A stretch of DNA of 64,000 bases. Source: Escherichia coli (GTDB lineage Bacteria; Pseudomonadota; Gammaproteobacteria; Enterobacterales; Enterobacteriaceae). Of the stretch, positions 8,794 through 29,977 are shown piece after piece. Made by a program: the position numbers and the translations under genes. Positions within the stretch are counted from its first letter, which is position 1, and the number at the start of each line of letters is the position of its first letter. Where the stretch lies: assembly GCF_046105845.1 (NCBI RefSeq), contig NZ_CP151004.1, one strand, 5' to 3'. The notes under the pieces were generated by a model. That model worked only from the letters and a program-made list of their open reading frames with translations, was not told where the DNA came from and ran no database searches.

Positions 8794-9033
8794 TTTAACC
8801 GTCCTGTTTCGTGTTGCATCTGCGTTGACTGCACATACTCACTCTGGTCACTTACTTATGTAAGCTCCCGGAGATTCGTAAGTTTGTCAACTTGCTGAAA
8901 CCCGAAACAGTTAGGTTAAAGATAACAAGATATTAGAATCAGGCCGGGGCGTATCGCGCTCCGTAAACACGGTCGTACATCCAGCCGGTAGCCTGGTTCC
9001 TTGCATTGAGTGATGTACGGAGTTTATAGAGCA

Positions 9034-14029: not shown

Positions 14030-14273
14030 TTTCCGCGTCATGCTTCACGCCGCAGATGCGTTGGCTGCGCTCGTTCACCCCAGTCACATAGTTATCTATG
14101 CTCCTGGGGCTTCACTCACTTGCCGCGTGATTCGGCCTTTTGGCCTCACCCCTCCGGGGCCAGCGCAAGCGCTGTTCAAAACGCAATGCGTTTTGTCCTG
14201 CAACGCGAATCATTTAGCGGAAAAATCCTGGGGCTGCCAACTGGCGGCCCTTTTACAAAGAAGGATAACTAGA

Positions 14274-15675: not shown

Positions 15676-16452
15676 ATGTCCGAAACAAAAAACGAACTTG
15701 AAGATCTGCTGAAAAAAGCAGCAATCGAACCGGCGCACCGCCCGGCCTTTTTCCGTACTCTACTGGAATCCACCGTCTGGGTGCCGGGTACGGCGGCGCA
15801 GGGCGAGGCTGTGGTTGAAGATAGCGCGCTTGATTTACAGCACTGGGAAAAAGAAGACGGCACCAGCGTCATTCCTTTTTTTACCTCGTTAGAAGCACTT
15901 CAACAGGCGGTTGAAGACGAACAGGCATTTGTCGTAATGCCCGTTCGCACATTGTTTGAGATGACCCTTGGCGAAACGCTCTTCCTTAATGCCAAACTGC
16001 CAACCGGTAAAGAATTTATGCCGCGTGAAATCAGTTTGTTGATTGGTGAAGAAGGAAATCCGCTGAGCAGCCAGGAAGTACTGGAGGGCGGTGAATCGCT
16101 GATATTATCGGAAGTCGCAGAGCCACCAGCACAAATGATTGATTCTCTCACCACCTTATTTAAAACTATTAAGCCGGTGAAGCGTGCTTTTATTTGTTCA
16201 ATTAAAGAGAACGAAGAGGCACAGCCTAATTTACTTATTGGCATTGAAGCCGATGGTGATATCGAAGAAATTATTCAGGCGGCGGGAAGTGTAGCGACCG
16301 ATACATTACCTGGCGATGAACCCATCGATATTTGTCAAGTGAAAAAAGGGGAAAAAGGAATTAGCCACTTTATTACCGAACATATTGTGCCATTCTATGA
16401 ACGTCGCTGGGGTGGTTTTTTGCGTGACTTTAAACAGAACCGGATAATCTAA
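15676..16452 (+). CDS. sseB: enhanced serine sensitivity protein SseB
   Basis: Start at MSETKNELEDLL (258 aa); synteny downstream of pepB. Confidence 0.9.
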   Translation: MSETKNELEDLLKKAAIEPAHRPAFFRTLLESTVWVPGTAAQGEAVVEDSALDLQHWEKEDGTSVIPFFTSLEALQQAVEDEQAFVVMPVRTLFEMTLGETLFLNAKLPTGKEFMPREISLLIGEEGNPLSSQEVLEGGESLILSEVAEPPAQMIDSLTTLFKTIKPVKRAFICSIKENEEAQPNLLIGIEADGDIEEIIQAAGSVATDTLPGDEPIDICQVKKGEKGISHFITEHIVPFYERRWGGFLRDFKQNRII

Positions 16453-16753
16453 AATATGCCGCCCCAAAGGGCGGCATTCGGGCTTACCTGCTGTTCTGAA
16501 GGTTGTTAACCACCAATAAATTGTTGCCGGAGAGATTCCGGTTATTATTTACCTCGGTTAACAGCGCACCAGAAACAATAAGTACGATACAAAAGCACCG
16601 TATCTTCATTGTGCGGTCCATGCGAAGACCGCATCACGACAGCACCACTGGCGATATTGCCGCGATAGCAAGCGCTGAGACGCGCGTGCCCTAACGGTCG
16701 CGGAACATCCTTTCCTTAAGCCAGCGCCCGCTTGCGAGACGGCGGAAAGGTCC
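16450..16753 (-). ncRNA. candidate RyfA-like transcript (putative type I toxin mRNA)
   Basis: Minus-strand -10-like TATTAT (16766-16761) and minus-strand terminator hairpin ATGCCGCCC-tttg-GGGCGGCAT + ATTTT (16477-16451) delimit ~304 nt; position matches the sseA-sseB intergenic sRNA locus known in enterobacteria (from memory). Confidence 0.4.
16484..16609 (-). CDS. candidate small hydrophobic protein (41 aa; 45 aa from ATG 16621)
   Basis: Minus-strand ORF MKIRCFCIVLIVSGALLTEVNNNRNLSGNNLLVVNNLQNSR with one predicted TM-like segment; weak SD; in frame with an upstream strongly SD-preceded mini-ORF (16708-16691) separated by two stops. Confidence 0.3.
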   Translation of the reverse strand: MKIRCFCIVLIVSGALLTEVNNNRNLSGNNLLVVNNLQNSR

Positions 16754-16797
16754 GCAGTGGATAATACACTAACAGAACAATAATAACTCTCTTTTGC

Positions 16798-16930
16798 TTG
16801 ACAAAAAGAGGGTTACTGGCGAGTATTGTCTCCGCTGAGACGCGCTTGCATTACTACGGTAATACAACCTGCTGGAAAGGCCGCGAACCGGACCAGCAAC
16901 AAAAAACCGCCTGATTTTGGCGGTTTTTTG
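16798..16930 (+). ncRNA. candidate small RNA unit 1 (promoter to intrinsic terminator; antitoxin-like)
   Basis: Perfect -35 TTGACA (16798-16803), 17-bp spacer, GAGTAT (16821-16826); terminator ACCGCC-tgatttt-GGCGGT + T6 (16901-16930); 5' end 16833-16845 identical to plus strand 16673-16685. Confidence 0.4.
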
Positions 16931-17073
16931 TTGTTTAAAGAAAATGAAATTACACGTTTAAGTAATATCTTTTACCAGTTAGTATATTTTAATATTAAGC
17001 GGGATTTTTTTATATTTGTCTGAATTCGGACTGATAAGCCAAATGAATTCAAAATCTATCCTTTTTTATCTAC

Positions 17074-17198
17074 TTGACATCGTTGATGCATAAAGCGAGT
17101 ATTGAGTAGACGAGATACACTTGCAGTAATACAACCTGCTGGAAAGGCCGCGAACCAGACCAGCAATAAAAAAACCGCCAAATTCGGCGGTTTTTTTA
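17074..17198 (+). ncRNA. candidate small RNA unit 2 (paralogous tandem copy of unit 1)
   Basis: Same architecture: TTGACA (17074-17079), 17-bp spacer, GAGTAT (17097-17102); ~73-bp block 17126-17198 ~88% identical to 16857-16930 including terminator CCGCC-aaattc-GGCGG + T7. Confidence 0.3.
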
Positions 17199-17213
17199 TT
17201 GCCTGTAAAAAGC

Positions 17214-18059
17214 TTATTTCAATGGCTCAACCGGTAAATCTGCCCGTGCGCCCCATTCACTCCATGCGCCGTCGTACAGTTTCACGTTTGGCACATCCAG
17301 CGTCGCGAGTGCCAACAAAACCACGGCTGCCGTTACACCAGAGCCGCAGCTGACGATAATCGGTTTGTCATAGCTGACGCCGCGACCAAAAAATATCGCA
17401 TCCAGTTCATCGGTCGTTTTTAGTTCGCCTTCGCGCACCAGTTCCGTCCACGGAACGTTCAATGCACCGGGAATATGTCCGCGACGTAAACCTGGGCGAG
17501 GTTCATCAACTTCTGCGTTAAAACGTGCAGCCGGGCGGGCATCAATAATTTGCGCCGTATTTTCATGGCTTGCCAATAACACATCGGTGACTTTCACCAC
17601 GGCTTCAGGATTAAACGTGGCGTTAAACTCTCCTTCCGGCAGCTCTACTGCCCCTTCTTCTAACAGCAGATCATCACGCTGCCAGCCTGCAAGTCCACCC
17701 CCCAGAATCGACACTTTCTCTACACCAAAGGTGCGCAGCATCCACCATGCTCGTGGGGCTGAGAATAGATTACCTTCGTCATAGATAATCAGGTGCTTAT
17801 CCTGGTTAACGCCTAATTCACGCATCGCCACGGCGAACGTTTCCGGGCGCGGCAGCATGTGCGGAAGCGGGGAAGTGTGATCAGAAAGCGCTTCGATATC
17901 AAAAAATACTGCGCCGGGAATATGTCCATTCAGATACTCCTGAGCAACGTTACGATCTTCCTGTCCAGGCGACGCCATGCGGGCATCGATAATCTGAATT
18001 TCCGGGTCATCAATATGTTCGGCGAGCCAGTCGGCTCCTACAAACCATGTCGTGGACAT
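17214..18059 (-). CDS. sseA: 3-mercaptopyruvate sulfurtransferase (rhodanese)
   Basis: Start at MSTTWFVGADW (281 aa); two rhodanese domains, active-site CGSGVTA; ORF-track start 18218 is an extension. Confidence 0.93.
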   Translation of the reverse strand: MSTTWFVGADWLAEHIDDPEIQIIDARMASPGQEDRNVAQEYLNGHIPGAVFFDIEALSDHTSPLPHMLPRPETFAVAMRELGVNQDKHLIIYDEGNLFSAPRAWWMLRTFGVEKVSILGGGLAGWQRDDLLLEEGAVELPEGEFNATFNPEAVVKVTDVLLASHENTAQIIDARPAARFNAEVDEPRPGLRRGHIPGALNVPWTELVREGELKTTDELDAIFFGRGVSYDKPIIVSCGSGVTAAVVLLALATLDVPNVKLYDGAWSEWGARADLPVEPLK

Positions 18060-28748: not shown

Positions 28749-29867
28749 ATGCATAACCAGGCTCCAATTCAACGTAGAAAATCAACACGTATTTACGTTG
28801 GGAATGTGCCGATTGGCGATGGTGCTCCCATCGCCGTACAGTCCATGACCAATACGCGCACGACAGACGTCGAAGCAACGGTCAATCAAATCAAGGCGTT
28901 GGAACGTGTTGGCGCTGATATCGTCCGTGTCTCCGTACCGACGATGGACGCGGCAGAAGCGTTCAAACTCATCAAACAGCAGGTTAACGTGCCGCTGGTG
29001 GCTGACATCCATTTCGACTATCGCATTGCGCTGAAAGTAGCGGAATACGGCGTCGATTGTCTGCGTATTAACCCTGGCAATATCGGTAATGAAGAGCGTA
29101 TTCGCATGGTGGTTGACTGTGCGCGCGATAAAAACATTCCGATCCGTATTGGCGTTAACGCCGGATCGCTGGAAAAAGATCTGCAAGAAAAGTATGGCGA
29201 ACCGACGCCGCAGGCGTTGCTGGAATCCGCCATGCGTCATGTTGATCATCTCGATCGCCTGAACTTCGATCAGTTCAAAGTCAGCGTGAAAGCGTCAGAC
29301 GTCTTCCTCGCTGTTGAGTCTTATCGTTTGCTGGCAAAACAGATCGATCAGCCGCTGCATCTGGGGATCACCGAAGCGGGTGGTGCGCGCAGCGGGGCGG
29401 TTAAATCCGCCATTGGTTTAGGTCTGCTGCTGTCTGAAGGCATCGGCGACACGCTGCGCGTATCGCTGGCGGCCGATCCGGTCGAAGAGATCAAAGTCGG
29501 TTTCGATATTTTGAAATCGCTGCGTATCCGTTCGCGAGGGATCAACTTCATCGCCTGCCCGACCTGTTCGCGTCAGGAATTTGATGTTATCGGTACGGTT
29601 AACGCGCTGGAGCAACGCCTGGAAGATATCATCACTCCAATGGACGTTTCGATTATCGGCTGCGTGGTGAATGGCCCAGGTGAGGCGCTGGTTTCTACAC
29701 TCGGCGTCACCGGCGGCAACAAGAAAAGCGGCCTCTATGAAGATGGCGTGCGCAAAGACCGTCTGGACAACAACGATATGATCGACCAGCTGGAAGCACG
29801 CATTCGTGCGAAAGCCAGTCAGCTGGACGAAGCGCGTCGAATTGACGTTCAGCAGGTTGAAAAATAA
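28749..29867 (+). CDS. ispG: 4-hydroxy-3-methylbut-2-en-1-yl diphosphate synthase
   Basis: 372 aa; [4Fe-4S] Cys ligands (CPTCSR ... GCVVNGPGE). Confidence 0.95.
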
Positions 29868-29977
29868 TAACGTGATGGGAAGCGCCTCGCTTCCCGTGTA
29901 TGATTGAACCCGCATGGCTCCCGAAACATTGAGGGAAGCGTTGAGGGTTCATTTTTATATTCAGAAAGAGAATAAAC

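Follow-up and report, generated by a model that had tools for sequence, protein, structure and literature searches.

What is encoded between the TimR gene and sseA in Escherichia coli? The DNA that we analyzed, a stretch of 64,000 nucleotides (the window), has the gene order sseB-timP (ryfA)-TimR-spacer-unit 2-sseA, where unit 2 (17074-17198) resembles the TimR gene, unit 1 (16798-16930). A sequence-only reading had described unit 2 as a tandem paralog of an sRNA gene with its own promoter and a terminator. These three points held, but the interpretation was incomplete: the two units are TimR/RyfB genes, which encode the antitoxin sRNAs of a type I toxin-antitoxin system, timP (ryfA). We conclude that unit 2 is probably a TimR-family antitoxin gene of specificity C, left when the toxin gene of a tandem second module was deleted. 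The features are listed in Table 1.

Table 1. Features of the sseB-sseA locus in the window
Feature	Coordinates	Strand	Basis
ryfA RNA, the timP toxin mRNA (resident toxin gene)	16451-16755	-	Rfam RF00126, 308 bits, full length
ORF with in-frame ATG upstream	16484-16609	-	Coordinates carried over from colinear RefSeq annotation, strain N3
TimR-binding box in resident timP 5′UTR, allele A	16673-16689	-	17-nt direct repeat vs unit 1 seed, 94% identical
Unit 1 promoter, TTGACA-17 nt-GAGTAT	16798-16826	+	5′ end of K-12 ECS011 reads 5 nt downstream of -10
Unit 1 RNA, cognate TimR (allele A), K-12 ECS011/IS129	16832-16929	+	Sequence identity
Inter-module spacer, Rfam IS128 match on opposite strand	16887-17065	-	RF00125, 167 bits; colinear with GF4-3 tandem-module spacer
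Unit 2 promoter	17074-17102	+	-35 TTGACA 17074-17079, 17-nt spacer, -10 GAGTAT 17097-17102
Predicted unit 2 RNA, ~91 nt, non-cognate TimR paralog, allele C	17108-17198	+	+1 by register with ECS011 5′ end
Unit 2 seed, GACGAGATACACTTGCA	17109-17125	+	17 contiguous Watson-Crick pairs with timP allele C box
Conserved TimR scaffold hairpin SL2, GCTGGAAAGGCCGC..ACCNGACCAGC	17137-17165	+	Invariant in 12 TimR homologs, six genera
Palindromic intrinsic terminator, unit 2 (+) and sseA (-)	17163-17202	both	95% complementary inverted repeat
sseA (3-mercaptopyruvate sulfurtransferase), convergent with unit 2	17214-18059	-	ORF and RefSeq annotation of colinear loci

The ryfA RNA is the mRNA of a small toxic membrane protein, TimP (PMC7667032). 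Translation of this mRNA is blocked by the divergently encoded TimR (STnc2070), whose 5′ end base-pairs with the timP 5′UTR (PMC7667032; PMC11228461). Rfam detected a single ryfA copy in the 64-kb window. RefSeq labels the colinear E. coli loci as timP, in the order sseB - timP - (unannotated) - sseA - yfhM; strain KE55, for example, aligns colinearly and without gaps with 3073 nt of the window (98.8% identity). Elsewhere in the window, the expected known elements iscRS (8923-9032) and sroE (29867-29958) were matched. There was also an Rfam AaHKsRNA22 match on the minus strand (14131-14203; 45.3 bits, gathering score 39.8), upstream of or within the pepB start, which is found at the equivalent place in E. 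whittamii as well (L073, 913-985).

The two units share a direct repeat, a 71-nt 3′ block (16859-16929 and 17126-17196) with 87% identity. Its 21-nt core, CTGCTGGAAAGGCCGCGAACC, occurs exactly twice in the 64-kb window, against a chance expectation of 0. Upstream of the hairpin the similarity continues for 45 nt, and it takes in the promoter hexamers as well: TTGACA lies ahead of each unit (16798, 17074), GAGTAT follows at the same 17-nt spacing, and the exact 10-mer GCGAGTATTG is present at 16819 and 17095. The first ~25 nt at the 5′ side diverge, with an 8-nt gap in unit 2 relative to unit 1. [quoted passage not shown] By its repeat, scaffold and promoter, then, unit 2 is a true paralog of unit 1, as the sequence-only reading had it; the shared promoter architecture, the repeated 3′ block and the divergent 5′ end that it described were all recovered.

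Five E. coli alleles (A, B, B′, C and D) agree in both hexamers and in the 17-nt distance, whereas their spacer sequences have diverged, a pattern that a functional promoter should show. A promoter and terminator scanner reported neither unit, and the promoters and terminators were taken by direct reading and folding. The scanner missed the promoters because a GAGTAT -10 has only 3 of 6 consensus positions, and the terminators because the A/T extension of their stems uses up the T-tail.

Unit 1 is the TimR gene of this genome. A 13-nt match (17 nt at 94%) joins it to the box in the timP 5′UTR, and because the two genes are divergent, this match means RNA-RNA complementarity. In addition, unit 1 is identical in sequence to the K-12 RNA ECS011 (re-annotated as IS129), for which a strand-specific probe revealed bands of ~95 and ~100 nt on Northern blots (PMC3175480). 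The ECS011 reads begin at CCGCUGAG, which places the mapped 5′ end of unit 1 at 16832. The box complementarity and the identity to ECS011/IS129 together make unit 1 the cognate TimR. Its fold consists of the seed, two stem-loops (SL1 and SL2) and the terminator. At position 16686 the resident timP box carries G (GCGCGTGC), whereas T (GCGCTTGC) is the base in most genomes with allele A; with G, the perfect duplex formed with unit 1 is 13 bp long instead of 17 bp (-39.3 vs -43.5 kcal/mol).

For comparison with unit 2, homologs were taken from a pattern search of contigs with the degenerate sequence GCGGTCNNNGCANNGACCGCAC. The matches listed were mostly from unrelated GC-rich genomes; usable among them were 15 Enterobacterales ryfA loci, with no Salmonella or Shigella locus. 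Twelve TimR sequences from Escherichia, Citrobacter, Superficieibacter, Yersinia, Rahnella and Erwinia loci were aligned. Unit 2 agrees with every invariant column of this alignment, and the GCUGGAAAGGCCGC...ACCNGACCAGC hairpin, the A-rich linker and the intrinsic terminator are all present. It is predicted to fold into a single-stranded 5′ end with the seed, SL2 and the terminator (-29.5 kcal/mol, z -5.7). By scaffold and promoter architecture, unit 2 is a new and unannotated member of the known TimR/RyfB antitoxin sRNA family, probably transcribed from its own sigma-70 promoter as an RNA of ~91 nt. No credible ORF was found for it in the open reading frame list.

Rfam contains no TimR family. 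Its AgrB model matched unit 2 below threshold (31.5 bits, gathering score 40), probably driven by the terminator; AgrB identity was rejected, as were sub-threshold matches to RNAI and to leader peptides, which also look terminator-driven. Within the scaffold, the 14-nt GCUGGAAAGGCCGC and the closing ACCNGACCAGC (16869-16897, 17136-17164) are invariant from Escherichia to Yersinia, Rahnella and Erwinia while their surroundings vary. This suggests an element that is protein-binding or otherwise sequence-specific, beyond a mere structural hairpin.

Unit 2 departs from the family in two respects, its orphan (non-cognate) status and its missing SL1. SL1 shows covariation and is kept in 11 of 11 other homologs; in unit 2 alone it is absent, since the 8-nt deletion takes out its 5′ arm. 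Unit 2 could be partly disabled, as it is the only family member examined without SL1. The same SL1-less sequence is the only cognate antitoxin in strains with timP allele C. As to position, unit 2 does not lie divergently and directly upstream of timP/ryfA: unit 1 and a spacer of ~140 bp intervene.

The timP box and the TimR seed occur as matching alleles across the E. coli loci compared. We distinguished four: A (CGCTGAGACGCGC), B (timP GCTGTGAAACACCTGC, timR GCTGTGAAGCACCTGC, with one G·U), C (GACGAGATACACTTGC) and D (CTGTGGGGTGCCTG). The seed of unit 2 is essentially non-complementary to the resident timP(A), with 5 contiguous bp at -12.5 kcal/mol; unit 1 covers that toxin, with 13 contiguous bp at -39.3 kcal/mol. 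Pairing of unit 2 with timP(B) (-18.0 kcal/mol; 4 Watson-Crick pairs, 9 with G·U) and timP(D) (-9.6 kcal/mol; 4 Watson-Crick pairs, 5 with G·U) is short as well. Only with timP(C), found in other strains (MSB1_4I and 38 other genomes, WP4-S18-ESBL-07 among them), does it form 17 contiguous bp (-33.6 kcal/mol). From this pairing matrix, unit 2 would not be expected to act on the resident timP as well, and we rejected such cross-repression; no further match to the unit 2 seed was found in the 64-kb window. It had been suggested that divergent seeds could direct the paralogs to different mRNAs or make them decoys. The predicted target does differ, as an allele that is absent here, but it is still the same mRNA, not that of a different gene; for a decoy role we found no evidence.

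The survey of complete E. coli genomes (5426, the base for the timP(C) count) gave 7702 places with the 3′ block in 5425 genomes. The timP box was of allele A in 2990 genomes, B in 1975, C in 39 and D in 527 (sum 5531). The timR 5′ region was of allele A in 4543, B in 2146, C in 394 and D in 580; their sum, 7663, is close to the number of 3′ blocks. With ~7660 timR against ~5530 timP copies, there are at least ~2100 surplus timR genes. Two TimR-type genes are present in ~40% of E. coli genomes, K-12 among them. Surplus non-cognate timR genes are thus common in this species, K-12 included; we found no description of them in the searchable literature.

For allele C, 394 genomes with unit 2 against 39 with timP means that ~90% of the unit 2 copies are partnerless. 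Four genomes with a partnerless copy were inspected, and all had timP(A) and timR(A), as in the window; strains KE55, N3 and 118UI are of this haplotype. We checked 11 of the timP(C) genomes. In 10, the slot near sseA is filled by unit 2(C), which is their sole cognate antitoxin; in the remaining one (L133), the locus breaks off within an IS1 element ahead of the unit 2 slot. The slots are filled in various ways: timP(A) with timR A and C in the window, timP(B) with A and B in K-12, timP(C) with B′ and C in MSB1_4I, and timP(A) with A and B in MDR_56. In each of 15 inspected E. coli loci with an intact timP, at least one cognate timR was present, in either slot. The exception is L005, where fusion of box and seed has removed the 5′ end of timP.

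On the DNA, timP box and timR seed form direct repeats separated by ~160 bp. Deletions that fuse the two and strip both promoters and the timP 5′ end were seen in E. coli 06-00048 (L005, 2716-2790), in fS54a (H142/H164), in Citrobacter amalonaticus (L085) and in Yersinia aleksiciae (L121). Box-seed fusion thus seems to have inactivated the module repeatedly. Mobile elements have struck unit 2(C) in timP(C) strains where it is the sole cognate copy. IS1 lies in the -35 of unit 2 in MSB1_4I (L006, 2440-2530) and at the identical position in AF3. In strains 1190, ST70 and M114 (L130-L132, 1400-1540), an IS200/IS605 element lies just before the unit 2 terminator and supplies its own hairpin.

How did a genome with a single timP(A) come to carry a TimR gene of specificity C? 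Strain GF4-3 (NZ_CP053258.1; L129, 700-2600) has three complete modules in tandem, timP(A)-timR(A), timP(B)-timR(B) and timP(D)-timR(D). A duplicated 3′ fragment of sseB, annotated by RefSeq as a partial sseB pseudogene, lies ahead of both module 2 and module 3. Positions 16300-17041 of the window are colinear with its module 1 and the inter-module spacer at 95.8% identity, and colinearity resumes at unit 2 and sseA. The window therefore corresponds to a two-module array minus the sseB′ fragment of module 2, its timP and part of the intergenic region. This comparison ruled out that unit 2 is a simple local duplicate of unit 1. K-12 retains ~25 nt of the 5′ end of a second timP and the duplicated promoter region.

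Genomes with a single unit (APEC IMT5155, O157) have a 5′ half of unit 1 type or of their own, joined to a terminator of unit 2 type; from their sequences, they look like recombinants between the 71-nt repeats. The deletion model alone cannot explain K-12-like haplotypes, in which the timP box matches the distal timR; these need an extra step of box conversion or recombination. In the K-12-type genome NZ_CP043199.1 (L002, 1714-2313), the timP box is of allele B, and its match is the distal timR near sseA, which has seed B. ECS011/IS129, the copy closer to timP and the one verified by Northern blot, has seed A and is non-cognate there.

The region between the units also bears on an Rfam family. 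The IS128 match there (Table 1) ends in the unit 1 terminator read in reverse. IS128 gave no signal with strand-specific probes and was proposed to be an artefact (Shinhara et al. 2011, PMC3175480). Since this stretch is what separates the modules in tandem timPR arrays, the family may describe a non-gene. Against unit 2 itself the IS128 covariance model scored 23 bits (gathering score 80), and no match was obtained on the strand of unit 2.

The hairpin that closes unit 2 folds on both strands (Table 1). On the minus strand its folding energy is -28.2 kcal/mol (z -6.7), with U7 after the stem, so by folding it would be able to terminate the convergent sseA transcript; a bidirectional terminator that also ends sseA is plausible, as had been proposed. 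The symmetric hairpin near the sseA stop was confirmed. Its distance of 15 nt from that stop was merely approximate, since the extended stem ends 11 nt from the stop codon (17214-17216). This sseA-proximal type of terminator is kept in every architecture, single-unit genomes included.

The following course of events would fit the reading of unit 2 as a leftover antitoxin gene. A second tandem timP-timR module would have lost its toxin gene, and unit 2 would have stayed behind. Unit 2 would be transcribed from its sigma-70 promoter into the ~91-nt RNA. In a cell with timP(C), this RNA would, by analogy with Salmonella TimR, bind stem-loop 2 of the timP 5′UTR and block translation. In the present genome it would have no cognate target and would be a surplus antitoxin, probably neutral or on stand-by. 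The palindromic terminator, by also ending the sseA transcript, may help to hold the 3′ end of unit 2 in place.

Why such copies persist can be read in other ways. Surplus TimR genes might be kept as stand-by immunity, to neutralize timP alleles of other specificity that arrive by recombination or box conversion, and would then resemble the orphan immunity genes of polymorphic toxin systems. A cognate timR accompanies every intact timP in the 15 loci inspected, in either slot, the surplus copies have the same sequence as the cognate copies of other strains, and timR(C) is ten times commoner than timP(C). These patterns, however, are equally expected from loss of a redundant toxin and slow decay of a harmless antitoxin. 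Moreover, both Salmonella (PMC7667032) and avian pathogenic E. coli (APEC) tolerate a timR deletion, which would leave little selection for immunity, and we consider stand-by immunity unlikely. The uniformity of unit 2 bears on this point: 388 of the 394 copies are identical over 96 nt, 34 nt of which are adjacent spacer, and four strains show 0-1 substitutions in 145 nt of unit 2 against 1.4-2.6% divergence in adjacent sseA. Constraint or, equally possible, recent spread of a single haplotype could underlie it; near-identity as decisive proof of purifying selection was dropped because the neighboring spacer bases are equally uniform.

Unit 2 might instead be a silent relic, no longer transcribed, in which the terminator alone matters, for sseA. 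The loss of SL1, the tolerated IS1 or IS200 insertions in several strains and the universal retention of the sseA-proximal terminator could be understood in this way. We nevertheless give a silent relic little credence: the perfect -35, the 17-nt spacing and the -10 are those of the expressed unit 1, the same sequence must serve as the antitoxin in timP(C) strains, and the surplus copy of K-12 (ECS011) is expressed. Neofunctionalization, with a 5′ end freed from timP and regulating unrelated mRNAs, would account for an intact promoter and terminator and a 5′ end predicted to be single-stranded, and work in APEC suggests TimR effects beyond ryfA. It is improbable given that the seed is the exact complement of timP(C), as in an unmodified antitoxin, and that the 64-kb window holds no other complementary site. 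Finally, the palindromic A-run/T-run hairpins at both units might belong to a REP-like or generic terminator repeat family without any gene, a finding that the sequence-only reading had named as a refutation. This can be practically dismissed, because the 73-nt block occurs 1-3 times per E. coli genome (twice in the window), always at the sseB-sseA locus and, in the survey of complete genomes, never on plasmids, and because the similarity continues upstream past the hairpin. The leftover antitoxin gene of a tandem module is the reading that we prefer.

The exchangeable specificity alleles and the frequent surplus antitoxins are the most interesting by-product of this analysis. A wider proposal, which we regard as rather doubtful, is that timPR in E. 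coli is a population-level "lock-and-key" system with at least four interchangeable box/seed specificities (A-D), in which surplus TimR is maintained as a repertoire. If this were true, the repertoire would let a toxin box switch its partner or protect against imported toxin alleles, and the surplus TimR genes would be an RNA counterpart of orphan immunity genes. Four co-varying seed/box alleles with surplus antitoxins offer a natural system for the evolution and exchange of sRNA-target specificity. There is also a practical side. An identity can now be given to a promoter-bearing, unannotated sRNA gene of 394 complete E. coli genomes, and ECS011/IS129, perhaps also C0614, K-12 RNAs whose function was previously unknown, are now tied to the timPR toxin-antitoxin system. 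The timR adjacent to timP is not always cognate, as in K-12, where the cognate gene is the distal one. Because there may be two TimR-type genes, the adjacent one sometimes non-cognate, timR experiments and annotation pipelines must check the box match.

Tandem sibling antitoxin sRNAs beside the gene for a small membrane toxin are known from dinQ-agrA/agrB and zorO-orzO/zorP-orzP, where a short seed sets specificity; in dinQ, one of the two sRNAs alone represses the toxin. Their sequence families differ from that of unit 2. In K-12, ECS011/IS129 has the sequence of unit 1, and the distal unit has seed B, cognate to the K-12 timP, where unit 2 has seed C. C0614 of K-12 shares the strand of unit 2 and has the corresponding place beside sseA. 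We at first equated the two and then dropped this, since by coordinate mapping the annotated C0614 (2651474-2651560) shares only ~9 nt with the RNA predicted for K-12 unit 2, which leaves the equivalence uncertain. C0614 lies over the K-12 remnant of the second timP 5′ end.

Salmonella TimR, for which repression of TimP translation and toxicity is established (PMC7667032, PMC11228461) and which blocks the timP pseudoknot (PMC11228461), is ~100 nt long, with a 5′ seed for timP stem-loop 2 and a terminator. Like it, unit 2 carries the TimR scaffold shared by six genera; Salmonella enterica TimR itself was compared by its published description, the homolog alignment spanning six other genera. Unlike it, unit 2 does not adjoin timP, is mismatched to the resident box and has no SL1. 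Another close parallel is the RyfB1/RyfB2 pair of Shigella dysenteriae, likewise two sibling sRNAs of ~100 nt (those ~60% identical) at the same locus, both detected by RNA-seq (PMC5333039). Which partner each one recognizes depends on a short variable region, and RyfA1, unlike RyfA2, is lowered by RyfB1 (PMC5333039). In S. dysenteriae, however, each RyfB adjoins its own ryfA copy and has one RyfA partner (PMC5333039), whereas here two RyfB-type genes stand beside a single ryfA.
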